From NCBI GenBank assembly GCA_046533775.1, contig JAWDOO010000009.1, positions 1 through 16,381 on the forward strand: a DNA stretch of 16,381 nucleotides, in the 5' to 3' direction. Shown here piece after piece: positions 1,356 through 14,932 of this stretch. Below the pieces are notes generated by a model, which worked only from the letters and a program-made list of their open reading frames with translations, was not told the DNA's origin and made no database searches. Made by a program: the position numbers and the translations under genes. Each line of letters opens with the position of its first letter. The stretch's first letter is position 1. This DNA comes from Candidatus Nanopusillus sp. (GTDB lineage: Archaea; Nanobdellota; Nanobdellia; Nanobdellales; Nanobdellaceae).

Positions 1356-3800
1356 CTAGATTAAAAATATTATTGATGCAATTATTCCTACAAGTATTAA
1401 TATATAATTAATATTTTCTGATGCAATTAAAGAAGAATTTTTTGTAGGTCCATTTACAACTAAATTATATTGAGCATTTCCAATATTTTGTCCATTTACA
1501 TTAAAATTAAGTAATAATGAAGAAGATCCAATATATAATGGTAATATATTAAATTGTAATATATATGATTGATTTGGTTGTAATTGATTTATATTTATAT
1601 TATTTAATGATTGTATTGGAATTTGATTATATAATATTTCTGGTACATTTCCTAATTGTAACAAATTTATTGTAATATTATTTAATGTCATATTTCCTAT
1701 ATTTGTTATATTTAATGTTAAAATATATTCTGGATAATCTAAACTAAATTCTAAATTATTTCCAATTGGTCCATATGTAGTATTTATATTAATTGGCTGA
1801 ACATATGCTTTTAATTGAATTATACCATAATAAATATATGTTTGAGCCACATTTAAATTAAATATCTCTGTTACGCAATTAGATTGTCCATTTGTTAATG
1901 TAGAACATACAGTTATATTTCCATTATTTGAATATGGTAATTGTAAATTAAATGAATAATAATTTGTATTTACATTACTATTTGAATATACATTATTATT
2001 ATTATAATATACATTTATTGATTGTATATTTTGATTTGATCCATTTACTGAAATTGTTGTATTTATATTTTGATTTGTTATATTTAATATATTAATATCT
2101 ATAATTGGAACTGTTATTCCTGATGAAGGTATATTTAAGTTAACTGTATTTGAATTAACACAATTTCCATTATAACATCCTTGTGCATATACTGAGTAAC
2201 TTCCAGAATATGAAACAATACATAAAGAATTTATATTTTGAAATTGTGAATATGAATCATAACAATATGGAGAATTATTTACATATAATGTATAATTTTG
2301 AGCACAACCTGTTATATAAATATTATAAGAATTCTGAAAGTTTGAACTTTGCTGAGATGAGATAGAAATTTGCTGACCTATATTATATGTATATGTTGCT
2401 GATGCTGAAGATCCTGAAATTGAAGCTGTCACTGTTACTGAATATGAACCTGGAGGCATTGTTGGAGATGAATTTACATATAATGTTGTTGAACAGGAAG
2501 ATCCGCTAGTAGTACATGATGATGGATTAAGCGAACATGTTATACCAGAAGGTGCTGAACAAGAAAAAGTAACTGTTGTAGAAGCACTACTAGGATTATT
2601 TAAGTTAGCAGTTACTGTTGATGATGTTTGAGTACCTGGACAAACTGTAGAAGAACTTGATGGATTTAATTGAACTGATGAAACTGAAACTGCAGGTTGT
2701 ATAGAAATTGAAGGCATTACATCATTGGGTGGTAATGATCTTAATAAAACCCAATATAAGTATATATTATTACCTGAGCTTTGTTGTCCTATTGTTATTG
2801 GTAAACTAAATGAACCAGGTATTATTGTAGTACTTAATATTTGAGTATAATTTACTAAGAAATATGTATAACTACTAGAGAATCCTATTTCATATATTGT
2901 TGGAGCATAATTATATGTTGTACTTCCTACTCCATTAGTTCCAACAACTAAACCAAATTGACCCGAGTTTCCTGAATTTGGATATGTAAATGCAGCACCA
3001 TCATTATTACCAGCAGCTATAAGTCCCCCACCACAACCAATAAAGTATTCACACATTGAATTTGCTTCACCTACCCCTAATGCTATAATATCCCAACTTG
3101 TACCGCTTGTAGTTGGAATGGAAGCATAAATTTCCAATATATTATTTTGAATATTAAAGTTTACTGTAGTAGTAATACCCTCATTACCTCCACCCCAAGT
3201 AGAAGACGGAATAATTATATAATCTGTTGAAAAGGAAACACTATATTCCTCCCGATATACAGGAGTCCATGATGAAGGTAATGAACTCAAACCTCCAAAA
3301 TTTTGATAATAATTAAATACATCCTGTCCATTATCATACTGAGAAGTACTTAAAACTTGTATAGGCGCACCAACATATGGATAATATTGAGAATAATAAT
3401 TATCACTAGAAGATCCTATATACATAAATATTGTTATCTCTGAATTAGCATTAATTCCTTGAGGTAAATTAATCCACCATACATCACAATATGTATTACC
3501 ATAATTTAATTGACCTTCATACCATGAATATATATTTGGTGAACCTCCAGCAGTTGTGGAAAAATAAACATTTTGTCCGTTTGAATCTATTTCATTAAAT
3601 AATGTCGGATTATTTACATACGCAAAATTATTACCTATATTAATATCTCCATTACATATTGCTATATCCTGTTGGAATGGTTGTGGAGTTGCTTGAGATT
3701 GAGTATTTGTTATAGTAATAGCATACCATCCCTGAGAATACACAAACTTTGATATTAAAATAACTAGCAATCCAAATAACAATATTTTTAATAATTTCAT
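1356..3800 (-). CDS. Large secreted, C-terminally membrane-anchored surface protein (814 aa). The N-terminal half is DUF2341-like plus LamG/ConA-like lectin-type, followed by an S/T/C-rich Ig-like region and an N/Y/I-rich beta-rich region
   Basis: ORF track. The N-terminal signal peptide is MKLLKILLFGLLVILISKFVYS|QG. The pattern WYAITITN...VYF...YSWYEG...VWWINLPQGINANSEITIFMYIG matches the DUF2341 consensus as I remember it. The following DVFNYYQNFGG...SSW resembles the start of a LamG-like domain. There are many N-x-S/T sequons, and the protein ends in the hydrophobic helix YILILVGIIASIIFLI. Confidence 0.8.
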   Translation of the reverse strand: MKLLKILLFGLLVILISKFVYSQGWYAITITNTQSQATPQPFQQDIAICNGDINIGNNFAYVNNPTLFNEIDSNGQNVYFSTTAGGSPNIYSWYEGQLNYGNTYCDVWWINLPQGINANSEITIFMYIGSSSDNYYSQYYPYVGAPIQVLSTSQYDNGQDVFNYYQNFGGLSSLPSSWTPVYREEYSVSFSTDYIIIPSSTWGGGNEGITTTVNFNIQNNILEIYASIPTTSGTSWDIIALGVGEANSMCEYFIGCGGGLIAAGNNDGAAFTYPNSGNSGQFGLVVGTNGVGSTTYNYAPTIYEIGFSSSYTYFLVNYTQILSTTIIPGSFSLPITIGQQSSGNNIYLYWVLLRSLPPNDVMPSISIQPAVSVSSVQLNPSSSSTVCPGTQTSSTVTANLNNPSSASTTVTFSCSAPSGITCSLNPSSCTTSGSSCSTTLYVNSSPTMPPGSYSVTVTASISGSSASATYTYNIGQQISISSQQSSNFQNSYNIYITGCAQNYTLYVNNSPYCYDSYSQFQNINSLCIVSYSGSYSVYAQGCYNGNCVNSNTVNLNIPSSGITVPIIDINILNITNQNINTTISVNGSNQNIQSINVYYNNNNVYSNSNVNTNYYSFNLQLPYSNNGNITVCSTLTNGQSNCVTEIFNLNVAQTYIYYGIIQLKAYVQPININTTYGPIGNNLEFSLDYPEYILTLNITNIGNMTLNNITINLLQLGNVPEILYNQIPIQSLNNININQLQPNQSYILQFNILPLYIGSSSLLLNFNVNGQNIGNAQYNLVVNGPTKNSSLIASENINYILILVGIIASIIFLI

Positions 3801-3823
3801 ATTTTATTATCATAATTACTTAC

Positions 3824-3831
3824 TTATAAAA
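3824..3831 (-). promoter_or_regulatory. Candidate archaeal TATA box (TTTTATAA on the minus strand) for the 814-aa surface protein gene; implies a leaderless mRNA
   Basis: The minus strand reads AAATTTTATAAGTA, with exactly 23 nt between the octamer and the ATG at 3800. The octamer therefore spans -31..-24 relative to the A of the ATG, the canonical TATA position if transcription starts at or next to the ATG. An identical octamer with identical spacing precedes the 641-aa surface protein gene. Caveat: A/T octamers are frequent in this composition. Confidence 0.35.
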
Positions 3832-3884
3832 TTTATCATGAAGTAGAGCTTACATATAAACTTTATATACTAATTTTATTAAAA

Positions 3885-5213
3885 ATGGAAATTGAAATTT
3901 TTCCAATAGGTGGATATTCATATATAGGAAAAAATATGAGTGCAATAAGAATTGATGATAAAATAATTATAATAGATATTGGAATAAATGTAGATAAAGT
4001 ATCTCAATTTGGAGAAAGGGAAGATATAACTAATAAACCATTAAAAGAATTATATGATTTAGATATAATACCTGATGATTCAATTTTAGAAAATTATAAA
4101 GATAAAGTAAAGGCAATAATATTAACACATGGACATTTAGATCATATAGGAGCAGTAAATTTTATTGCACCAAAATATAATGTTCCAATATATGGATCTC
4201 CATATACAATTGAATTAATAAAACAACAAGAAAAAGAATATGGAATTGTTTTACCAAATGATTTAAAGAAAATATCTCCAAATTCTTCAATTAAAATTTC
4301 TGAAGATATTTCAATTAATTTTATTAATATTACTCATTCAATTCCTCAACCTTTAATGATTGATATTCAAACAAATAAAGGTCATATAATATTTTCAGGT
4401 GATTTTAAATTTGATAATTTCCCAATTATTGGTAAAAAACCAGATAAAGAAAAATTAAAGAAAATTGGAAAGGAAGGAGTTTTATTATTAATTTCTGAAA
4501 CAACAAGGGCGGAAGAAAATTCAAAATCACAATCGGAAATTATTGAAAAATATATGTTATATGATGTATTACATTCAATAGATACAAAGGGAATAATTAT
4601 AACAACATTTTCCTCACATATTGCAAGATTAAAATCAATAATTGAATTATCAAAAGAAATAAATAGAAAACCAATATTTATTGGAAGAAGTTTAGGAAAA
4701 TATATTAGTGCAGCAGAAAATATTAATTTATATAATTTTTCTCAAGAGGCGGAAATATATTTTGATCCAAGAGATTATAAAAAAGTTTTGGAAAGAGTAG
4801 AAAAAAATAAGGAAGAATATTTATTAATTGTTACTGGACATCAGGGTGAACCTGGCTCTATTTTAGATAGATTATCAAGGGGAGAATATAATTTTGATCT
4901 AAGTGATACAACAGTAATATTTGCAAATAATATAATTCCACATCCAATAAATGAAGCAAATAGAAAAATATTGGAAGAAAGATTGAAAAGAAAAAAAGCA
5001 GAAATAATAAAAGATATACATGTATCAGGTCATGCAAAAAGTCAGGATCATATAATGTTATTAAAAATGTTAAATCCCGAATATATAATACCAAATCATG
5101 GAGATATAAATAAAAAAGCCTCATATTATAATATTGCATCAGATTATGGATATACATTGGGAGAAGATATATTTTTCCTAGAAGATTATCAGAGAAAAGT
5201 ATTTAATATATAA
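3885..5213 (+). CDS. rnj: Ribonuclease J-like metallo-beta-lactamase/beta-CASP RNase (archaeal type, 442 aa)
   Basis: ORF track. It has the HxHxDH motif in AIILTHGHLDHIGA, an N-terminal IGGYSYIGKNMSAIRIDDKIIIIDIG, the beta-CASP region, a late HVSGHA motif and NHGD near the C-terminus. Length and motif order fit archaeal RNase J. Confidence 0.85.
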   Translation: MEIEIFPIGGYSYIGKNMSAIRIDDKIIIIDIGINVDKVSQFGEREDITNKPLKELYDLDIIPDDSILENYKDKVKAIILTHGHLDHIGAVNFIAPKYNVPIYGSPYTIELIKQQEKEYGIVLPNDLKKISPNSSIKISEDISINFINITHSIPQPLMIDIQTNKGHIIFSGDFKFDNFPIIGKKPDKEKLKKIGKEGVLLLISETTRAEENSKSQSEIIEKYMLYDVLHSIDTKGIIITTFSSHIARLKSIIELSKEINRKPIFIGRSLGKYISAAENINLYNFSQEAEIYFDPRDYKKVLERVEKNKEEYLLIVTGHQGEPGSILDRLSRGEYNFDLSDTTVIFANNIIPHPINEANRKILEERLKRKKAEIIKDIHVSGHAKSQDHIMLLKMLNPEYIIPNHGDINKKASYYNIASDYGYTLGEDIFFLEDYQRKVFNI

Positions 5214-5228
5214 AGTTAATATATTTTT

Positions 5229-5747
5229 ATGAAATCGATACATATTTACATTGAATATATTTTAATAATATTACTATCAGCATTTACATTTTATTTTGTT
5301 TTTACGTGGTGGAATAATAATAAAATATATGCAATAAATTTTTATAACCAAAATAAATTTCAATATGAATCAAAATATATAGAAAATGTATTAAATAATT
5401 TAGAAGATGATTTATATTTTAATATAAATTTTAATTTAAATGGATATGATATATATTGTATAAATAATTTAACATTAATTAAATCTAATAATTTTTGTAA
5501 GACAACATTAAATAATATAACATATCAGGGAGAATTAATATATTCATATGGAAATTATTATGTATATGATCCAAAAATGAATGGATATTATTTATTGGAA
5601 AATAATAATAATATTACATTGTATGGATGTTTTGAGGATTATTTATCATTAATAATATTGACAAATAATTGTACAGGAATATGTTATGGAAATTGCAATT
5701 TAAATATAGTTAAAAATCAAACATCAATATATTCAATAATACAATGA
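5229..5747 (+). CDS. Pilin-like / class III signal peptide candidate: a small Cys- and sequon-rich secreted protein (172 aa)
   Basis: ORF track. The N-terminus is MKS-IHIYIEYILIILLSAFTFYFVF, a short basic leader followed by a hydrophobic helix carrying a Glu (IEYIL), as in archaeal type IV pilins. It sits directly upstream of the pilus ATPase and platform genes, and its stop overlaps the next start by 4 nt. It has six Cys and several N-x-S/T sequons. Confidence 0.5.
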   Translation: MKSIHIYIEYILIILLSAFTFYFVFTWWNNNKIYAINFYNQNKFQYESKYIENVLNNLEDDLYFNINFNLNGYDIYCINNLTLIKSNNFCKTTLNNITYQGELIYSYGNYYVYDPKMNGYYLLENNNNITLYGCFEDYLSLIILTNNCTGICYGNCNLNIVKNQTSIYSIIQ

Positions 5748-5983
5748 AAACACAATTATTATTAGAACAAGTATTATTTATTTTTTTAGTTTTATTATTT
5801 ATATCAGGTTCATTAATATTTTATTATAATTATCTAAATAATTTAAATTATAAAAATTCAATAATAAAAAATCAAATATATAATTTAACATTGGAAGATG
5901 CAAAATTAAATAATCAATCAAATTTATTGTACTATCAAGGTTATTACTATCCAGTTGGTACTATAATAATTAAAAATTCATAA
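5744..5983 (+). CDS. Very small pilin-like protein (79 aa), class III signal peptide candidate
   Basis: ORF track. The N-terminus MKT|QLLLEQVLFIFLVLLFISGSLIFYY has Q at +1 and E at +5 of the putative mature end, resembling the archaeal QxSxE-type and bacterial E5 pilin motifs. It has an ATGA overlap with the upstream pilin-like gene and lies 15 nt upstream of the ATPase gene. Confidence 0.55.
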   Translation: MKTQLLLEQVLFIFLVLLFISGSLIFYYNYLNNLNYKNSIIKNQIYNLTLEDAKLNNQSNLLYYQGYYYPVGTIIIKNS

Positions 5984-5998
5984 GTAGGTTAAAATTAT

Positions 5999-7546
5999 AT
6001 GAAAAAAATTGTTGCAGAAGAAATACTGAAATATTTTGATAATGAAATAAAAAAGGAATCCTTTATACCAGAAATAAGGTCTAACACTGATAAATCAAAG
6101 ATTGATATAATTTATCCACTAATTGGAAAACTTGCATATGCACATATTTATTATGATAATATATCTGAAGAACTCGTATATGAATTACTAGAACCAGAAA
6201 TATCCGATGAAGATAAAATATTAATAGAAAAAATAAAACAATATATTTTGGATGAAATGTACAAAGATCCTGAAGAATTTTTAAATAAAAATAAAGAATA
6301 TGTATTGGCTAAGAAATTGGAAGAATTTGTAAATAGATATAAAATAAAAATAGAAAGAGATGTATTCATAAAATATTACTATTATTTATGGAGAGATATG
6401 TTAGGATATGAAAAAATTCATCCATTATTTTATGATATATTTATTGAGGATATTTCATGTGATGGATATGATATACCAATATATGTACATCATAATAAAT
6501 TTGGAATATTAAGGACAAATATAATTTTATCTAGGGATGAATTAGATAGATTTATAGTAAAATTAGCACAGAAGGCTGGAAAACATATATCATATGCGGA
6601 ACCAATTCTCGATGCAACATTAGATGATGGATCAAGAATAAATGCAACATACTCACAAGAAATTACTACAAATGGTCCAACATTTACAATAAGAAAGTTC
6701 AAAAAACAAATGTTATCATTAGTAGATTTGATAAAATCAAATATGTTAGATTCTGAAGTTGCTGCATATTTATGGACATTAGTAGAATATAGAGCTAATA
6801 TATTAATTGCAGGTTCCACATCTTCTGGAAAAACAACATTATTAAATTCAATTGCTCAATTTATACCACCAGAAGCAAAAGTAATATCTATTGAAGATAC
6901 AAGAGAATTACAATTATATCATGAAAATTGGATTCCTGCAACAACAAGAAGGGGTTTCTTTGTTGGAGATAAATATTATGGGGAAATTGACATGTATAGA
7001 TTATTATCAGAATCTTTTAGACAAAATCCAGATTATGTAATTGTAGGAGAAGTAAGGGGAGAAGAAACATATGTAATGTTCCAAGGAATGGCTTCTGGTC
7101 ATTCTGCATTATCTACTATACATACCGATAGCTGGAGGACATTAATAAGAAGATTAACCACAGCACCAATTAATTTAACTTTAGATCATGTTGCATTATT
7201 AGATGCAGTAGTATTTACAATGAGGGCAAGGAATATTTCTCCCTCCGCTAGAAGAGTAAGAGAAATTGTTGAAGTTGGAAAATATTTAAATGGAAAGATT
7301 GAAAATGAAACAGTTGTAAAATGGAATTTCGAAGATGATACATTTGAGAAAAAAGATTTAGGAAAATATACTGAAGAAACATTAAAATATAGAGTTGGAT
7401 CAAATATAAGTTTTAAAGATTCAATAGAAGAAAAAAAAGAAGTAATAGATTATTTAGTAAAGAAAAATATAAGAGAAAATAAAAAAATTGCTGAATATGT
7501 AAGGCTATATTATACTGATAAAGATTCTTTATTGAGAAAAATATGA
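5999..7546 (+). CDS. Archaeal type IV filament assembly ATPase (FlaI/ArlI / PilB / VirB11 superfamily, 515 aa)
   Basis: ORF track. It has Walker A in LIAGSTSSGKTTLLNS, an Asp box in VISIEDTRELQL, Walker B in PDYVIVGEVRGEE and a His box in GHSALSTIHT. Confidence 0.9.
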   Translation: MKKIVAEEILKYFDNEIKKESFIPEIRSNTDKSKIDIIYPLIGKLAYAHIYYDNISEELVYELLEPEISDEDKILIEKIKQYILDEMYKDPEEFLNKNKEYVLAKKLEEFVNRYKIKIERDVFIKYYYYLWRDMLGYEKIHPLFYDIFIEDISCDGYDIPIYVHHNKFGILRTNIILSRDELDRFIVKLAQKAGKHISYAEPILDATLDDGSRINATYSQEITTNGPTFTIRKFKKQMLSLVDLIKSNMLDSEVAAYLWTLVEYRANILIAGSTSSGKTTLLNSIAQFIPPEAKVISIEDTRELQLYHENWIPATTRRGFFVGDKYYGEIDMYRLLSESFRQNPDYVIVGEVRGEETYVMFQGMASGHSALSTIHTDSWRTLIRRLTTAPINLTLDHVALLDAVVFTMRARNISPSARRVREIVEVGKYLNGKIENETVVKWNFEDDTFEKKDLGKYTEETLKYRVGSNISFKDSIEEKKEVIDYLVKKNIRENKKIAEYVRLYYTDKDSLLRKI

Positions 7547-8376
7547 ACTTTTTAGTAAAAAAATTGTATCCATATTTTAAGGATAAAAAATATGATATAT
7601 TTTATACACAATTTAAAACATCTATTGAAGATTATATAAAAACAACATTGAAATATTCTTTCCTAACATTTATATTATCTTTTATATCTTTATCATTAAT
7701 ATTTATCTTCTATCTAAATTTCTATAATATAGTATTATTTTTCGTAAGTATTTTATTTGGAATTATTGTTGGCTTTTTAACATTTATTTATTTTTATATT
7801 TATCCATCATTAGCAAAGGCAGATTATATAAAAGATATAGAAGATAATTTACCATTTTTTGCATTATATTTTTATTCATATTCAGGTTCCCAAATGAATA
7901 TAATAGATATATTTAAATTATTAAATAAAGAAAAAAGATTTGGAGCAATAAATAAAGAAATTTCATATTTATTAATATTGATTGATAATTTTGGATATGA
8001 TATTTTATCAGCATTATTAGAATTGGCTCAAAAAACACCTTCAGAAAAATTCAAAGAATTTTTATATGGATTAATATCAGTAATTAGATCTGGAGGTTCT
8101 TTAAAAGATTTTGCAAGAATATATGCAAAGCAAAATTTAGAAGAATATGAAATACAATTAAAGGAATATAATGAAAAAGTCAATTTATGGGTAACATTAT
8201 ATGCATTTTTCTTTATAACATTTCCAATGGTATTATTAATTTTAGCATTCTTATTTTCAATTGCATCAGGAAATGCAAATATTTTAAATTCATTATTATT
8301 CTTCTTTATTTTAATTATTCCATTTTCTTATATTACATATTTATATATGATACATATATATCAACCAAAGATTTAG
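7543..8376 (+). CDS. FlaJ/TadC-like type IV filament platform membrane protein with a single T2SSF-like unit (277 aa)
   Basis: ORF track. It has an ATGA overlap with the ATPase gene. The layout is TM pair, cytoplasmic helical segment (NLPFFALYFYSYSGSQMNIIDIF...EFLYGLISVIRSGGSLKDFARIYAKQ), then TM pair, as in one T2SSF repeat. Confidence 0.75.
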   Translation: MNFLVKKLYPYFKDKKYDIFYTQFKTSIEDYIKTTLKYSFLTFILSFISLSLIFIFYLNFYNIVLFFVSILFGIIVGFLTFIYFYIYPSLAKADYIKDIEDNLPFFALYFYSYSGSQMNIIDIFKLLNKEKRFGAINKEISYLLILIDNFGYDILSALLELAQKTPSEKFKEFLYGLISVIRSGGSLKDFARIYAKQNLEEYEIQLKEYNEKVNLWVTLYAFFFITFPMVLLILAFLFSIASGNANILNSLLFFFILIIPFSYITYLYMIHIYQPKI

Positions 8377-8543
8377 AAATTAACGAATCCTTTCTTTGCT
8401 AAATCAATCGCTTCTTTTTTTAATTTTCTAAAACAAGATATATGAAAAATCATCCTTTCACCATTTAAATTTATTATTCTATATTTTTCATCATCATATA
8501 CTGGTCTATTACAATATTTACATTCACCAATTTTATTTCCCAT
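8373..8543 (-). CDS. Small zinc-binding protein candidate (56 aa, CxxC...HxxC)
   Basis: Hand-translated because it is below the ORF-track size cutoff. It reads MGNKIGECKYCNRPVYDDEKYRIINLNGERMIFHISCFRKLKKEAIDLAKKGFVNF*. The ATG is at 8543..8541 and the stop (TAA) at 8375..8373. It fills the otherwise empty gap between the platform gene and EF-2, on the same strand as EF-2. The metal-ligand pattern is C8/C11/H34/C37. Confidence 0.5.
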   Translation of the reverse strand: MGNKIGECKYCNRPVYDDEKYRIINLNGERMIFHISCFRKLKKEAIDLAKKGFVNF

Positions 8544-8573
8544 AAAAAATAATTATTTTTATTATATAAAAAT

Positions 8574-10778
8574 TTAGTGAACCCCTTCAGGTATTCCCTT
8601 TCTTTTTCTAATAGAATCTATTATTTGTTGTTGTAAATCTTTCGGTACTTTTTCATATACCTGATCTTCTAAGAACCAAACACCCCTTCCAGATGTTGCA
8701 GATCTTAATTCGTCTGTAAATCCAAACATATTTGCTACAGGTATCTTTGCCTTAATTACTGCTCTTTCTTCTTCAATATTCATTTCCAATATTTGTCCCC
8801 TTCTTGATTGTAATATTGATGTTACATCCCCAACAGTTTCTGGAGGAGTATCAATCCTTATAACTTGTAATGGTTCATATAATGTTGGTTGTTCAAGAAT
8901 AGCACTCTTTATTGCATCTTTTGTTGCAGGAATTATTTGAGCAGGACCTCTATGAATTGCATCTTCATGTAATACTGCATCAATTAATTTTACTTTCATC
9001 ATTATACCAGGTTCCCATGCTAATGGACCCTGATCCATTACTTCCTTGAATCCTTCCACAATATATTCTATTACTTCTGGCAAATGAACAATACCCCTTG
9101 TCATATCAATCAATACATTTCCATTATGTACCATTATAATTCTCCTTGCTTCTTCCTTATCAAATCCAATTTCATTAAATACTTTCCATAAATCTTCCTT
9201 TTTAATTCTCCCTTCGGGTAATTTTCCTTCCCTAATATATTCCCTCATTTTTTCATATATTTCATATGGTAAAGGTTCAATTTGTATATATATTTTATTA
9301 TGCTTGTTTGGAGACTTTCCTTCATATACTTGTGTAACTCCATTAACAGACTCTCTATAAATTACTATTGGATTTCCAACCTTTACAGGTATTCCAAAAT
9401 CATTTTGTACCCTATATTCTATTATTTGTAAATGTAAATCCCCCAAACCAGATACTAAAATTTCTCCAGTATCTTTTTTCTGCTCAACCTTTATTGTTGG
9501 ATCTTCTCTTGTTAATAGATCTAATGTTTCAATTAATTTTGGCAAATCATTTGGATTCTTTGGTTCAAATGATTTTGTAACTACAGGATCTAACCAGTGC
9601 CTCATTTCTTCAAATGTTTCAACACTTTTTGGATCTTGAACTTTTCCAACAATTGTTTCTCCTGGATATAATCCTCTTATTCCAACTAAAGCAATTATAT
9701 TACCAGCTTTTACAGAATCTACATTTATTCTTTGTATTCCTTTCCATATAGCAACCTGTTGTATTTTTATTTGCCTTCCAGCTTGGATTAAATATACATC
9801 ATCACCTTTTGATAATGTACCTGAAAATATTCTTGCAGTTGCAATTTCTTGTTTTGATACTTTATCAATTATTACATTTGTTACATTTATTACAATTGGT
9901 CCATTTGAATCTAAATTTAACATTGCTTTTCCAACATCTGAATTTATATCCCCCTTCCATATATGAGGAATTCTATATTTTTGAGCTTCAACTGGAGAAG
10001 GTAAATGTCTTATAACCATATCCAATACAACCTTTGCAACAGGTGCCTTTTTTCTCATTTCCTCTTTTAATTTTTCTTTATCTTCTAAAAATTGATTATA
10101 TATTTCAATTATATCTTTAAATGAAACATTATATTTTTTCATAAAAGGTACTGATAATGCCCAATGGAATTTTGCAGATCCAAATGCAACAGATCCATCA
10201 TTTACATTTACATTCCATTTTCCTTTAAATTCTGGAGGAGAATATTTATCAATTAATCTATTTATTTCAATAACTATTTTTCCAATTCTCTCCATAATCT
10301 GTTGTGGAGATAATTTTAATTCTGTAATTGCTCTATCAGCTTTATTTATAAATAATACTGGCTTTACATATTCTTTTAATGCAGTCCTTAATACAGTTTC
10401 TGTTTGTGGCATTATTCCATCAACAAAATCTACAACAACAATTGCACCATCAATTGCTCTAGTAGCTCTAGTAACTTGTCCAGAAAATTCTACATGCCCC
10501 GGAGTATCTATTAAATTTATTAAATAATCTTGATTTTCATAATTATGAACCATTGAAACTGCTGCTCCATATACTGTCATTTCCCTTTCCCTTTCAGTTT
10601 CATGCCACCATGTAAACATTGCCTCACCTGCAAGTTCTTCTGCTAACATTCCTGCACCTGCTAATAAAGAATCTGTCAATGTTGTTTTCCCATGATGTAT
10701 ATGCGCAATTATACCTATATTTCTTATATTATTCGGATTATTCATAACTTGCAATATTCTTTCAGTTAGACTAGCCAT
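8574..10778 (-). CDS. fusA: Archaeal translation elongation factor 2 (aEF-2, 734 aa)
   Basis: ORF track. G1 is AHIHHGKTT, G3 is DTPGHVEF and G4 is NKAD. It also has EAQKYRIPHIWKGD, YRESV, the GKSPNKHNK loop and the diphthamide site HEDAIHRGPAQIIPA (His609, codon 8952..8954). Confidence 0.97.
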   Translation of the reverse strand: MASLTERILQVMNNPNNIRNIGIIAHIHHGKTTLTDSLLAGAGMLAEELAGEAMFTWWHETEREREMTVYGAAVSMVHNYENQDYLINLIDTPGHVEFSGQVTRATRAIDGAIVVVDFVDGIMPQTETVLRTALKEYVKPVLFINKADRAITELKLSPQQIMERIGKIVIEINRLIDKYSPPEFKGKWNVNVNDGSVAFGSAKFHWALSVPFMKKYNVSFKDIIEIYNQFLEDKEKLKEEMRKKAPVAKVVLDMVIRHLPSPVEAQKYRIPHIWKGDINSDVGKAMLNLDSNGPIVINVTNVIIDKVSKQEIATARIFSGTLSKGDDVYLIQAGRQIKIQQVAIWKGIQRINVDSVKAGNIIALVGIRGLYPGETIVGKVQDPKSVETFEEMRHWLDPVVTKSFEPKNPNDLPKLIETLDLLTREDPTIKVEQKKDTGEILVSGLGDLHLQIIEYRVQNDFGIPVKVGNPIVIYRESVNGVTQVYEGKSPNKHNKIYIQIEPLPYEIYEKMREYIREGKLPEGRIKKEDLWKVFNEIGFDKEEARRIIMVHNGNVLIDMTRGIVHLPEVIEYIVEGFKEVMDQGPLAWEPGIMMKVKLIDAVLHEDAIHRGPAQIIPATKDAIKSAILEQPTLYEPLQVIRIDTPPETVGDVTSILQSRRGQILEMNIEEERAVIKAKIPVANMFGFTDELRSATSGRGVWFLEDQVYEKVPKDLQQQIIDSIRKRKGIPEGVH

Positions 10779-10900
10779 TATAATAAAATTAAAGAATAAT
10801 ATTTTAAAATAAATTTTATGATATTACATACATATTAGAAAATAAATATTTTGATAAGTCATTATATCTTATTTTTAAACACAAAAATAATAAATCAAAA

Positions 10901-11077
10901 TTATTTATTAATTTTTAATTCAAAAGCTTTTGCCTGAAATCCTACTTTTCTATGACTTCCATCGCAATATGGTTTATTTTGTGAATTACCACACCTACAT
11001 AAATGATATAATACTTCTCCATTTACCAATATTTCGTATGGTCCATTTTCATATCCCCTTATTACAATTTCTACCAT
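10901..11077 (-). CDS. CDGSH-type iron-sulfur domain mini-protein (58 aa)
   Basis: Hand-translated. It reads [58 protein letters not shown]. The string [16 protein letters not shown] matches the CDGSH consensus C-x-C-x2-S-x3-P-x-C-D-G-S-H exactly. The ATG is at 11077..11075 and the stop at 10903..10901. Confidence 0.8.
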
Positions 11078-11115: not shown

Positions 11116-11709
11116 ATGAGATCTTATTTTTATACAATAATTCTAGGAATAACATCTATATTAATATTATTTTTTATATTTTTATTAAATAATGTAAAAT
11201 TTAATAATAACTATATTTTAGAAAAAACAAATATTATAATTGATAATCAAAATATATCATTATATTTATTGAATATATATGGAAATGGATGTTATTTATA
11301 TAATATTACTGACGGATATTTTATAATAAAAAATGAAGGACCTGGAATAAATTATATAATACCATTAGCAGAATATATTAATACTACTTCATTTATATTT
11401 TGTAATCAAACATTTTATTATAATATAACAATTGAAGAATGTTTACCAATTCCATGTAATATAACATGCGAACATGGAATATTATGTCCAACGATAAAAT
11501 GTATTGAATATTCATTTTGTTCTAATATAACATATTATATTAATATAACATATCCACTAATAATTGTTAATAATGATATATTTTTATATAATAATAATGT
11601 TTATTGCTATTCAAAAAGTTATAATATAATTTATAATAAATTACCTGGAAATTATTTATACAACTTAATATATAATTTAATAAGTTCTATACCAAAAAAT
11701 ATGGTATGA
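11116..11709 (+). CDS. N-terminally anchored, Cys-rich, sequon-rich exported protein (197 aa); possible third pilin-like protein
   Basis: ORF track. The N-terminus is MRS-YFYTIILGITSILILFFIFLL, the same M-[KR]-[ST] plus hydrophobic helix layout as the two pilin-like ORFs at 5229..5983. It has nine Cys (for example CLPIPCNITCEHGILCPTIKC) and many N-x-S/T sequons. Its stop overlaps the Dph6 start (ATGA). Confidence 0.55.
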   Translation: MRSYFYTIILGITSILILFFIFLLNNVKFNNNYILEKTNIIIDNQNISLYLLNIYGNGCYLYNITDGYFIIKNEGPGINYIIPLAEYINTTSFIFCNQTFYYNITIEECLPIPCNITCEHGILCPTIKCIEYSFCSNITYYINITYPLIIVNNDIFLYNNNVYCYSKSYNIIYNKLPGNYLYNLIYNLISSIPKNMV

Positions 11710-13006: not shown

Positions 13007-14932
13007 TTATTCTTCAGCTTTTTCCTTTTCTTTTTTACCTCCCTTTCTTGATTCTATTAATACTGCAGCTATTATTATTATTGCCAATATTACTAATATC
13101 CAGAATATTAATTCTGATGAGGGCAATGATACTGAAGGTACTTGAGATACTGAATATGTTTCATTTAATGAATATAATAATTGTCCTGTTTGTTGATCTA
13201 TTATATTTACATATACTGTTACATTATTACTTTCTGCAGTTACATTCAGTGGTATTTGTTCTGTATATGTACCTCCTATTTGTATTTCTTGTTGTTCTGG
13301 ATATACTTCTCCTCCAACAGCATATGCCTGTATTAATAAGTTATATATCTGTGTTGTATTTGAACTTATTATTAAATATATTGTTGAATTTTGTCCATAT
13401 TTTAATGATATATATCCAACCAAAGATGCACTTATTGGTTGTGGTACTATTACTGTTCCATTTACATATAAATTATATGTATATGTTTGTGATATTCCAT
13501 TATAATTAAATACAAATTCTATTGGATAATATCCTGCTGTTAAATTTCCTGGAATATATATTACTACTGGTAATTGTATTACTTGATTTGGTGATAATGT
13601 TATTGTTGATAATTGTTGGAATATATTTAATTGTGGTGATTCTACTATTGGTTGTACTTGTATATTCATTGGTAAGTTAGATTCTAAATTTGCATATAAT
13701 TCTATAAATTGTCCTGGTTTTACATTAAATGTATTTGTATATACACTTAATACATTTACCGGTTGTATATTTTGTTCATCTACTGTTATTGTATATTTAT
13801 ATTGATATACTTCTACTCCATTTTGATATACATATAATATTATTGTATAATATCCTGGCTGTAATCCTACTGTATTTAATGGTAATATTACCTCTCCCTG
13901 AGAACCTGGAGGTATTATTTGTGAACCTTGTAAATTATATATTAAATCTCCATATTGATCATATAATAACATTTGAACTGTTGCATTTACTGTTTGATAA
14001 CCTGGATTATTTATTAATACTTCTACATTATATATAGAATTTATTAAATTATTCAATGAATTAAAGTTTGGTGATACTGAAATTACTTGTATATTTTGTC
14101 CATTTTGATTATTTGATATATAGAATGATTGTTCTGTTTGTTGTGTCAATACTTGTCCATTAGATAGTACAACATTCAATTGTTCTAATACATACATTTC
14201 TCCTTGTACATTTTCTAAATAATAGTTTGGTATATTTACAGTTAATAAATTTTCTCCTGGTTGTAAATTTACATTTTCTTGTGTTTGGTATATAATATTT
14301 CCTTGAGAATTATATAATGTTAATATTAATGTAGAAGACTGTATATTTGTTTCAACATTTTGTAAATATACTACTGATTGTATATTTATTCCATATTGTT
14401 CTGCTTGTTGTTGTGAAATTGCTTCTGGTAATTGTACTAATGATAATGTCAAATTATATGGTACAAATGTTAAATTATATGTTTGATTTGCTGTTACATA
14501 TTCTAAACCTGATGAATATAATAATGTTACATTTGCCTGTACTGTGAAATTATAATATTGTTCTACTGAACATCCATAATATGTACATGAACTTGTTGAA
14601 CTATACTGTTGTACTAAATTTTCTAATTCTAAAGGATTTACTGATACCTGATATATGTTTAATCCTGTACATACTGATATAGGTTCATAATATTGATATA
14701 TTAATTGTCCATTTGGTGCATATATATTAAAGTACAAATCTGCCTCTTCCGGAGTTTCATTTACTCCATATAACTTTATTATAAATGTTAAATTATTTGC
14801 TGCATTTGCTAATATTGTTTGTGTTTGTGGTTCTATTATTATTTGTTGTGAATATACTCCCAATCCTAATAATACTAATCCTATTAAAAAACTAAACAAT
14901 CTTCTTATTGTTACTACTACTTTGTTATCCAT
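13007..14932 (-). CDS. Large secreted, C-terminally anchored adhesin-like surface protein with diverged repeated beta-sandwich (CARDB/Ig-like) modules (641 aa)
   Basis: ORF track. The signal peptide is RRLFSFLIGLVLLGLGVYS|QQ. A recurring module signature appears four times: NIYAPNGQLIYQY, TLYNSQGNIIYQT, LLYDQYGDLIYNL and NIIDQQTGQLLYSL, each followed by a PG-containing strand. There are at least a dozen N-x-S/T sequons. The C-terminus is a TM helix (LIFWILVILAIIIIAAVLI) plus a basic tail (ESRKGGKKEKEKAEE). Confidence 0.8.
   Translation of the reverse strand: MDNKVVVTIRRLFSFLIGLVLLGLGVYSQQIIIEPQTQTILANAANNLTFIIKLYGVNETPEEADLYFNIYAPNGQLIYQYYEPISVCTGLNIYQVSVNPLELENLVQQYSSTSSCTYYGCSVEQYYNFTVQANVTLLYSSGLEYVTANQTYNLTFVPYNLTLSLVQLPEAISQQQAEQYGINIQSVVYLQNVETNIQSSTLILTLYNSQGNIIYQTQENVNLQPGENLLTVNIPNYYLENVQGEMYVLEQLNVVLSNGQVLTQQTEQSFYISNNQNGQNIQVISVSPNFNSLNNLINSIYNVEVLINNPGYQTVNATVQMLLYDQYGDLIYNLQGSQIIPPGSQGEVILPLNTVGLQPGYYTIILYVYQNGVEVYQYKYTITVDEQNIQPVNVLSVYTNTFNVKPGQFIELYANLESNLPMNIQVQPIVESPQLNIFQQLSTITLSPNQVIQLPVVIYIPGNLTAGYYPIEFVFNYNGISQTYTYNLYVNGTVIVPQPISASLVGYISLKYGQNSTIYLIISSNTTQIYNLLIQAYAVGGEVYPEQQEIQIGGTYTEQIPLNVTAESNNVTVYVNIIDQQTGQLLYSLNETYSVSQVPSVSLPSSELIFWILVILAIIIIAAVLIESRKGGKKEKEKAEE

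Follow-up and report, generated by a model that had tools for sequence, protein, structure and literature searches.

Type IV filament systems related to the locus

Archaeal type IV filament loci of clade 2, or system 2 (Makarova, Koonin & Albers 2016; Sivabalasarma & Albers 2026 preprint), are exemplified by PilB3-PilC3 of Haloferax volcanii and GspE of A. fulgidus (2OAP), and system 2 loci contain one platform gene, pilins with and without class III signal peptide (SPIII) motifs, and often large adhesin-like proteins (bioRxiv 10.64898/2026.04.22.720090). Nanoarchaeal ATPases have already been assigned to clade 2 (Makarova 2016), type IV pilus (T4P) systems were reported in Nanoarchaeota in 2013 (PMC3655853), 2016 and 2018, and the most recent Nanobdellales genome has also been noted to contain T4P genes. 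The DNA analysed here (the window) is a stretch of 16,381 nt from the host-dependent nanoarchaeon Candidatus Nanopusillus sp. (the whole of contig JAWDOO010000009.1), which is AT-rich (~24% GC) and, from position 3367 onward, shares ~92% DNA identity with Candidatus Nanopusillus acidilobi 7A. It carries a pilus-like operon behind the RNase J gene rnj and, divergent from rnj, the gene of an 814-aa surface protein, a neighbourhood in which an initial annotation made from the sequence alone had seen a candidate cell-cell attachment system. The nanoarchaeal type of organism presumed in that annotation was correct. The reading preferred here, which is given a probability of about 60%, is that the operon encodes a minimal type IV filament machine other than the archaellum, and that the anchored protein with its variable head is a separable component for partner recognition.

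The locus shares with clade 2/system 2 a FlaI/PilB-family ATPase closest to 2OAP, a single platform gene, pilin-like genes of which some have the canonical SPIII motif and some do not, and a large adhesin-like protein nearby. It differs in its half-size platform (277 aa, one T2SSF domain), in an ATPase without the extensions that have been reported for system 2 at both termini, in the tiny, clade-restricted families of its 172- and 79-aa proteins, for which no arCOG or Pfam assignment was seen, and in the fusion of the operon behind rnj. From scores, context and literature, the operon is assigned to the euryarchaeal-type clade 2/system 2 loci, and the described system 2 pattern together with the earlier Nanoarchaeota reports places the locus in a known kind; it is not a new kind of system, since type IV pilus loci of Nanoarchaeota and their adjoining adhesin-like genes have been described before. 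Particular to this locus are the half-size single platform, the two clade-specific pilin-like proteins and a head cassette that is shared with pilin-like fusion proteins.

Conservation of the pilus-like operon

The gene string begins with rnj (3885..5213, + strand), which encodes the housekeeping RNase J (Pfam RNase_J_b_CASP, 2e-18; Lactamase_B; RMMBL), and continues with the genes of a 172-aa protein, a 79-aa protein, an assembly ATPase (515 aa) and a platform protein (277 aa), the successive junctions being gaps of 15 nt (first and third) and overlaps of 4 nt (second and fourth). These are the junctions given in the initial annotation, whose open reading frames (ORFs) and coordinates were likewise all reproduced by ORF calling. 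The operon is probably transcribed together behind rnj.

The string is kept with the same spacing across Nanopusillaceae loci, and the core operon, with rnj just before the pilus genes, is present in nine syntenic loci, namely the window, two JGI metagenome contigs (L001 and L002), N. acidilobi (L007), Nst1 (Candidatus Nanobsidianus stetteri; L090), Nanobdella aerobiophila (L003), strain YN1 (L004), a more distant relative with an ATPase identity of 57% (L089) and, in part, L088. The counterpart of the 79-aa gene in L089 is an uncalled 53-aa ORF, which was missed by the hidden Markov model (HMM) of the 79-aa protein. Among 6049 ORFs from 90 loci, including ~75 other DPANN pilus-type loci, the HMMs of the 172- and 79-aa proteins matched the syntenic loci only. 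The operon is accordingly clade-restricted and conserved rather than a decaying remnant. A scan of genome contigs gave, among the matches listed, one orthologue (N. acidilobi), the rest being DPANN paralogues. No record was found with the exact sequence of the ATPase or of P0233, which belongs to the same metagenome-assembled genome (MAG).

L088 (ENA k141_31045) was rejected as an independent synteny witness, as past the ATPase gene it runs on as another ATPase locus and may be a chimeric assembly. Its ATPase gene is followed by a 3-kb uncalled gap and then by ProRS and ParA, as in L006 and L015, an arrangement that could stem either from a chimeric assembly joined across paralogous ATPase genes or from genuine recombination. 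The same family has a second type IV filament locus (L015, Nanobdella, 618-640 kb; L006, a Nanopusillaceae MAG), in which a 497-aa ATPase gene is divergent from platform genes of 459-461 and 272-274 aa, beside TGT and S19.

ATPase and platform protein

The ATPase gene (5999..7546, +) encodes an assembly ATPase of the PilB/FlaI family (Pfam T2SSE, 1.8e-33), assigned to the non-archaellum type. Its Walker A, Walker B, Asp-box and His-box residues (G277, K278, T279, T280, E299, D300, G350, E351, R353, G354, E356, H368 and H375) are invariant in the family alignment (A4). The platform gene (7543..8376, +), which overlaps the ATPase gene by 4 nt, encodes a protein with one T2SSF domain (Pfam, 4.4e-15) and transmembrane (TM) segments at residues 36-88 and 213-272, whose size is that of TadB or TadC. 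The platform family comprises 27 clusters; 25 have 277-293 aa, and the other two are a partial sequence of 223 aa and, from a short contig, an ATPase-platform readthrough of 411 aa.

The archaellum has an ATPase and a platform of the same superfamily, and the two proteins could be an archaellum motor (ArlI/ArlJ), whose arlB, arlF, arlG and arlH genes would be scattered in a rearranged, reduced genome, and the small operon proteins would then be stators like ArlF and ArlG. Both ArlF and ArlG measure ~150-170 aa and combine a beta-sandwich with a helix at the N-terminus, and two small proteins of this build lie upstream of the ATPase gene, where ArlF and ArlG would sit. The ATPase is also of the minimal 515-aa type, like archaellum ATPases, its orthologues in Nanobdella and in JGI records are publicly labelled FlaI, with FlaJ for the platform protein, its best NCBIfam match is the FlaI equivalog NF058587, and archaella drive motility in relatives (PMC11104419). 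However, this match reaches 346.8 bits, far below the cutoff of 550, and the same model gives 364-424 bits for DPANN ATPases of loci (L005, L006) that have two TadC-like genes and no arl genes, so that 347 bits is the background for any archaeal pilus ATPase. Against PDB sequences, the best match is the pilus-type GspE of A. fulgidus (2OAP, 356 bits), compared with 238 bits for FlaI of S. acidocaldarius (4II7). The alignment of the platform protein with the UpsF and ArlJ models is limited to their N-terminal halves (in ArlJ, model positions 4-248 of 555), and at 277 aa the protein is not a full-length ArlJ, which has two T2SSF domains in ~470-590 aa.

No match to arlH (KaiC-like) or Arch_flagellin was found in the window or in the called genes of the nine syntenic loci, and neither small operon protein matches Arch_flagellin, in line with the initial annotation, which had recognised no archaellum-specific genes. 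In Nst1, the large neighbour of the operon is Nst1_264, from whose position the ATPase orthologue is Nst1_260 by gene order. Nst1_260 is one of the FlaI paralogs (with Nst1_088 and 227) that Podar et al. (PMC3655853) placed outside the archaellum set, which has its own flaH, flaI and flaJ. The supplement of Makarova 2016 lists five ATPases in Nst1 (three of clade 2, one of clade 3, the archaellum clade, and one of clade 4) and a FlaJ of 549 aa, and YN1 is reported with FlaBDEHIJF; judged in Nst1, the operon ATPase is thus not the sole FlaI-type ATPase of its genome. On the criteria tested, the operon ATPase and platform protein are classified as other than ArlI and ArlJ, although the public FlaI and FlaJ labels are not formally overturned. 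An archaellum motor is rejected on the scores, the half-size platform, the lack of arlH and the paralogy of Nst1_260, and is regarded as very unlikely; the preference of the initial annotation for a pilus over motility is supported on these points.

Half-size platforms with a single T2SSF domain are found in the bacterial Tad/Flp systems, which also have a very small pilin with the motif G|xxxxE(Y). The orthologues of the 79-aa protein have G|Q...E5, the 172-aa family has [ILV]EY, and the ATPase matches CpaF at 1.5e-39. Adhesion, the function of Tad/Flp pili, is also the role predicted for the operon of the window. In contrast to these systems, the operon has one platform gene rather than a TadB and TadC pair, it lacks secretin, TadZ, TadD, TadG and TadV, and it serves an archaeal envelope. 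The ATPase scores 147 bits on the TadA model TIGR03819 against a cutoff of 373, and is thus not a member of that family.

Small pilin-like proteins

The 172-aa protein (5229..5747, +) has a short basic leader, a hydrophobic helix and a beta-sandwich with six cysteines. Its AlphaFold2 (AF2) model (pLDDT 88.5) consists of a helix (residues 2-58) and a beta-sandwich (residues 63-171) in a lollipop fold, which, as modelled, is the architecture of type IV pilins, archaellins and ArlF/ArlG. In alignment A2 of the family, the N-terminus M[KR][SG]...[ILV]EY[IL]L and the six cysteines are conserved, and the whole family amounts to 11 clusters among 1.84 billion representatives. The 79-aa protein (5744..5983, +) is a short pilin-like protein with a class III-type leader and a TM segment at residues 1-31. 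Its leader reads MKT in the window and MKG or MRG in orthologues, including those of Nanobdella and YN1, and is followed by Gln at +1, Glu at +5 and, in these orthologues, ~20 hydrophobic residues. The PilA-type proteins of Nanopusillus start with MKS|ISPIIATILIIV, which points to a tolerance of Ser at -1 in this genus. The orthologues of the two genes in Nanobdella (MJ1_0697 and MJ1_0698 by gene order) were not flagged as filament proteins in a study of its surface proteins (bioRxiv 10.1101/2023.10.27.564410).

A third pilin had been proposed in the initial annotation for the 197-aa protein encoded at 11116..11709 (+), which is kept upstream of dph6. Its class III motif is not conserved, and profile comparison by hhalign with pilin sets gave a probability below 3%. 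This protein is therefore rejected as a pilin and treated as an unrelated, signal-anchored extracellular protein with nine cysteines.

For the 814-, 172-, 79-, 197- and 641-aa proteins of the window, hydropathy, sequons and cysteine counts all agree with export, and searches with Pfam and NCBIfam gave no informative match to any of the five. ORFs for exported or filament proteins span 5724 of the 16,381 nt (35%), close to the third estimated earlier. The cysteine counts are 0-16 in the exported-type proteins of the window versus 0-2 in the cytoplasmic ones, and the cysteine-rich predicted extracellular proteins (6, 9 and 16 Cys) are consistent with extracellular disulfides in this thermoacidophile.

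Architecture of the 814-aa surface protein

The gene of the 814-aa protein RXQ68_02845 (identical to NCBI protein P0121) was called at 1356..3800 (-). It runs divergently from rnj, the two starts being 84 nt apart, and thus lies outside the operon. Hydropathy showed the N-terminal signal-like segment and C-terminal TM helix that had been noted for this protein and for the 641-aa protein. The part following the signal peptide is a two-part head, in which submodule 1 (residues 23-168; 3297..3734, -) is DUF2341-like and conserved (~73% identity among orthologues), while submodule 2 (residues 169-345; 2766..3296, -) is a hypervariable recombining cassette (15-21%). The remainder (1359..2765, -), with 85-94% identity, comprises the conserved junction motif W..R..PPN..MP, an Ig-like stalk and a C-terminal TM anchor. 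The AF2 model of the whole protein has a mean pLDDT of 64, with a signal-peptide helix (residues 2-20), a well-predicted beta domain (24-135), a beta-rich region of low confidence (160-360), confident Ig-like domains (370-560 and 690-782) and a TM helix (798-813).

The initial annotation had described this protein as giant and lectin-like, with DUF2341-like and LamG-like domains. The DUF2341-like assignment stands by homology, as PF10102, with its gathering score of 23.4, is matched by nine of the 14 homologues that have submodule 1 and are 60-80% identical in that part (best 3e-7; for example P0199 with 31.8 and P0212 with 27.9 bits). Submodule 1 is common to 111 of the 120 homologues. Even at E<=1, the copy in the window matches neither DUF2341 nor Laminin_G of Pfam. 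LamG-like character is unconfirmed, as no member matches the LamG model and the region concerned is the low-confidence one, and giant overstates a length of 814 aa. Foldseek of the AF2 model against PDB returned generic multi-Ig matches only (TM <0.2), and the head profile had no match among PDB sequences.

A hypervariable cassette shared with pilin-like proteins

Nine orthologues with the same architecture differ mainly in residues 169-345, which are 15-21% identical (53% in the nearest), compared with 85-94% in the stalk and ~73% in submodule 1. The same break is found in the DNA, where positions 1-2683 and 3368-10809 of the window are 93% identical to L001, while the 684 nt between them (2684-3367) are unalignable. 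With 58-81% identity, the cassette recurs in the C-terminal heads of proteins of ~500-560 aa that form two groups. The first has pilin-/archaellin-type N-termini (MKSISPII...), gives sub-threshold matches to Pilin_N and Arch_flagellin and is named by NCBI as 'archaellin/type IV pilin N-terminal domain', while the second has a helix-first N-terminus (MRLQSE...). This identity shows an exchange of the cassette between anchored-stalk genes and genes of filament-subunit-like proteins. One pilin-fusion gene that was inspected stands alone amid housekeeping genes. In L089, a three-gene operon (2222-4502) lies 5 kb upstream of the orthologous pilus operon and encodes three proteins that begin with MRG, namely an archaellin-type one of 153 aa, one of 146 aa, and a pilin-like one of 460 aa in which DUF2341 is a bona fide domain. 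These fusions link the head to filaments more strongly than the gene neighbourhood on which the initial annotation had relied.

Type IV pilins with grafted adhesin or lectin modules are represented by PilB and PilC of Streptococcus sanguinis. Comparable modular pilins among archaea are the FlaFind-positive PA14 proteins (Makarova 2016). The 500-560-aa proteins of Nanopusillus follow this pattern, with a binding module at the C-terminus of a pilin, here a DUF2341/cassette head behind a pilin-type N-domain. The 814-aa protein differs in that it is no pilin but a protein with Sec signal peptide, stalk and C-terminal anchor. A further difference from modular pilins is that the cassette is exchanged between anchored and pilin scaffolds; its lectin activity is putative.

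In N. acidilobi 7A (L007, 2549-7798), two paralogues occupy the place upstream of rnj where the window has one 814-aa gene, Nps_03075 (1052 aa), which has two tandem heads, and Nps_03080 (590 aa), and the site upstream of rnj looks like a hot spot for the rearrangement of head genes. The same DUF2341-like head occurs in NV1_37 of Nanoarchaeotal virus 1 (P0193, 1311 aa), with 43% identity over ~355 aa (window residues 17-372), and in many metagenome proteins of ~1150-1300 aa beginning 'MIKKFLKLFGIF...'. Among the viral contigs of IMG/VR, the head profile had no confirmed match.

Linkage of the large surface proteins with the operon

In Nanopusillus and Nst1, the gene of the head protein is divergent and lies upstream of rnj. 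In Nanobdella, a 908-aa protein, which is MJ1_0701 by gene count, is encoded directly downstream of the platform gene and has only its C-terminal ~320 aa in common with the 814-aa protein. MJ1_0701 was described as pectin-lyase-like (Kato et al., bioRxiv 10.1101/2023.10.27.564410), so that a beta-helix in Nanobdella stands where the window protein has the DUF2341 and cassette head. In YN1, the 928-aa homologue YN1_2510 is located beyond EF2. The placing of the 814-aa gene beside the operon in the initial annotation is therefore upheld for proximity, while position (three in three genera), strand relation, copy number and head type are not kept. In YN1, three small genes (93, 97 and 138 aa; L004, 6865-7874), which may be a toxin-antitoxin-like insertion, occupy the site of the Nanopusillus head gene.

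The 641-aa protein (13007..14932, -), with a signal peptide and a TM helix at residues 600-632, is 62-77% identical to syntenic proteins of 632-645 aa (62% in L003 and 68% in L004). By synteny and identity, it is the orthologue of MJ1_0707 and YN1_2560, locus tags that were assigned from gene-order counts in L003 and L004 and from published text. MJ1_0707 ranks 12th in the transcriptome and was proposed as an S-layer anchor, and YN1_2560 was proposed as an S-layer or S-layer-anchor protein, the formation of a lattice being likewise a proposal of these papers. From this orthology, the 641-aa protein is best read as a general, S-layer-associated envelope protein. Its candidacy as a dedicated adhesin, for which the initial annotation had put it forward, is rejected, an S-layer identity being what that annotation had itself set against an attachment role.

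The neighbourhood as a whole could be coincidental, the large proteins being general envelope or S-layer parts and the operon functionally unrelated to them, as surface genes are frequent in genomes of 0.6 Mb. Besides the orthology of the 641-aa protein to a highly expressed proposed S-layer anchor, this explanation has in its favour that the 814-aa gene is on the other strand and shifts position between genera, that the housekeeping genes rnj, EF2 and dph6 are interspersed, and that surface glycosylation is said to take up ~10% of the proteome of N. acidilobi. However, a stalked protein with variable head is encoded within ~6 kb of the operon in eight of the nine loci and in at least four genera, and in the ninth (L089) a pilin-DUF2341 fusion is encoded near the orthologous operon instead. 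In addition, the head module is physically fused with pilin-/archaellin-like proteins, and adhesin-like genes are common in system 2 loci. A coincidental neighbourhood is considered fairly unlikely.

Proposed function of the locus

In the preferred reading of a minimal non-archaellum filament with a separable recognition protein, a class III signal peptidase encoded elsewhere would trim the short basic leaders of the pilin-like proteins; such an enzyme may be expected in the genome by analogy with relatives, which have archaella (PMC11104419). The hexameric ATPase, docked on the platform, would pull pilin helices from the membrane and stack them into a thin filament, the half-size TadB/TadC-like platform presumably acting as a homo-oligomer. 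The 172- and 79-aa proteins would be either the filament itself or its priming or minor-pilin complex, which PilA-type pilins encoded elsewhere in the genome may join. The 814-aa protein would be exported by Sec and anchored in the membrane, presenting its two-part head on the Ig-like stalk, and may cooperate with the filament. As the head is also the C-terminal domain of pilin-/archaellin-like proteins, one ligand-binding module could be displayed on the cell surface or on filaments. The cassette most likely serves to recognise variable surfaces of a partner (host S-layer or glycans, or possibly viruses), and a role of the locus in attachment and host recognition is plausible.

Several observations weigh against this reading. 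The residue at -1 of the 79-aa leader is Thr in the window, not Gly, Ala or Ser, and the Glu of the 172-aa protein is at +6. The HMMs Pilin_N, Class_IIIsignal and Arch_flagellin match neither protein, Foldseek of the 172-aa model against PDB found no pilin (best E 0.18), and hhalign of the two families with the pilin N-domains of Nanopusillus gave a weak similarity confined to the helix (29% probability). The initial identification of two pilin-like genes therefore stands on the modelled lollipop fold and on the [KR]G|Q...E5 leader of the orthologues, and not on pilin HMMs. A class III (prepilin) signal peptidase was not located, none being encoded in the window. One half-size platform by itself is uncommon and might depend on a partner from another part of the genome, and the public annotation of the Nanobdella orthologues as FlaI and FlaJ has to be counted here too. 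Finally, with the 814-aa gene on the opposite strand, its position different in Nanobdella and YN1 and its head different in Nanobdella, the linkage may reflect general synteny in a compact genome rich in surface proteins.

Cryo-electron tomography (cryo-ET) of relatives has revealed a second appendage type, 'thorns' on the archaellum and a filament of the attachment organelle, which lack assigned proteins. Instead of an adhesive pilus, the operon could build a pseudopilus of short length, or this nanobdellotal organelle's thin tube or filament, for transport between symbiont and host. In relatives, a filament or tube of 6.6-8 nm passes through a cone portal beside the second type of appendage (PMC11420986, PMC11104419, 2026 preprint), and the operon is minimal, strictly conserved in exactly this clade and includes, in the 79-aa protein, one of Flp-like size. 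Known type IV filaments, however, differ from this tube, which enters the cytoplasm of the host and has been described as sheathed, and such a transport function is regarded as highly improbable. Rather improbable, too, is the specific combination in which the operon assembles the rough 15-nm second appendage, or the attachment organelle's thin filament or tube, and the cassette determines narrow host specificity, being displayed interchangeably on an anchored stalk, on pilin-/archaellin-like subunits (possibly the archaellum 'thorns' of Nanobdella) and on a protein of a nanoarchaeal virus.

The locus bears on the question of how Nanobdellota (DPANN) symbionts recognise one specific host and attach to it, and it supplies candidates for the unassigned cryo-ET structures. 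The candidate filament machine and its two previously unflagged pilin-like proteins are conserved in the cultivated N. acidilobi, Nanobdella and YN1. These candidates, together with the hypervariable cassette, now delimited, that is exchanged among anchored surface proteins and filament subunits, are testable in existing co-cultures.

Other genes in the window

The remaining genes of the window include the N-terminal 440 residues of ThrRS (2-1321, -), which is broken off at the contig end, the genes of EF2 and an NFACT-R domain protein (Pfam matches), and those of Dph6 and a Cas4-like protein (NCBIfam matches). The NFACT-R gene overlaps the Cas4/Csa1-like nuclease gene, which is truncated by the contig end (14968-16381, -), and the window contains no CRISPR array or further cas gene. 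Scans of the window with Rfam and for tRNAs returned nothing. Two small genes were absent from the initial annotation. One (8373-8543, -) lies on the strand opposite to the platform gene, whose stop it overlaps by 4 nt; it encodes a 56-aa cysteine-rich, zinc-ribbon-like protein (CxxC...C) and is found in the same place in L001, L002 and Nst1. The other (10901-11077, -), between EF2 and the 197-aa gene, encodes a 58-aa protein of the CDGSH iron-sulfur type, whose orthologues in Nanobdella, YN1 and Nst1 contain the Pfam zf-CDGSH domain.

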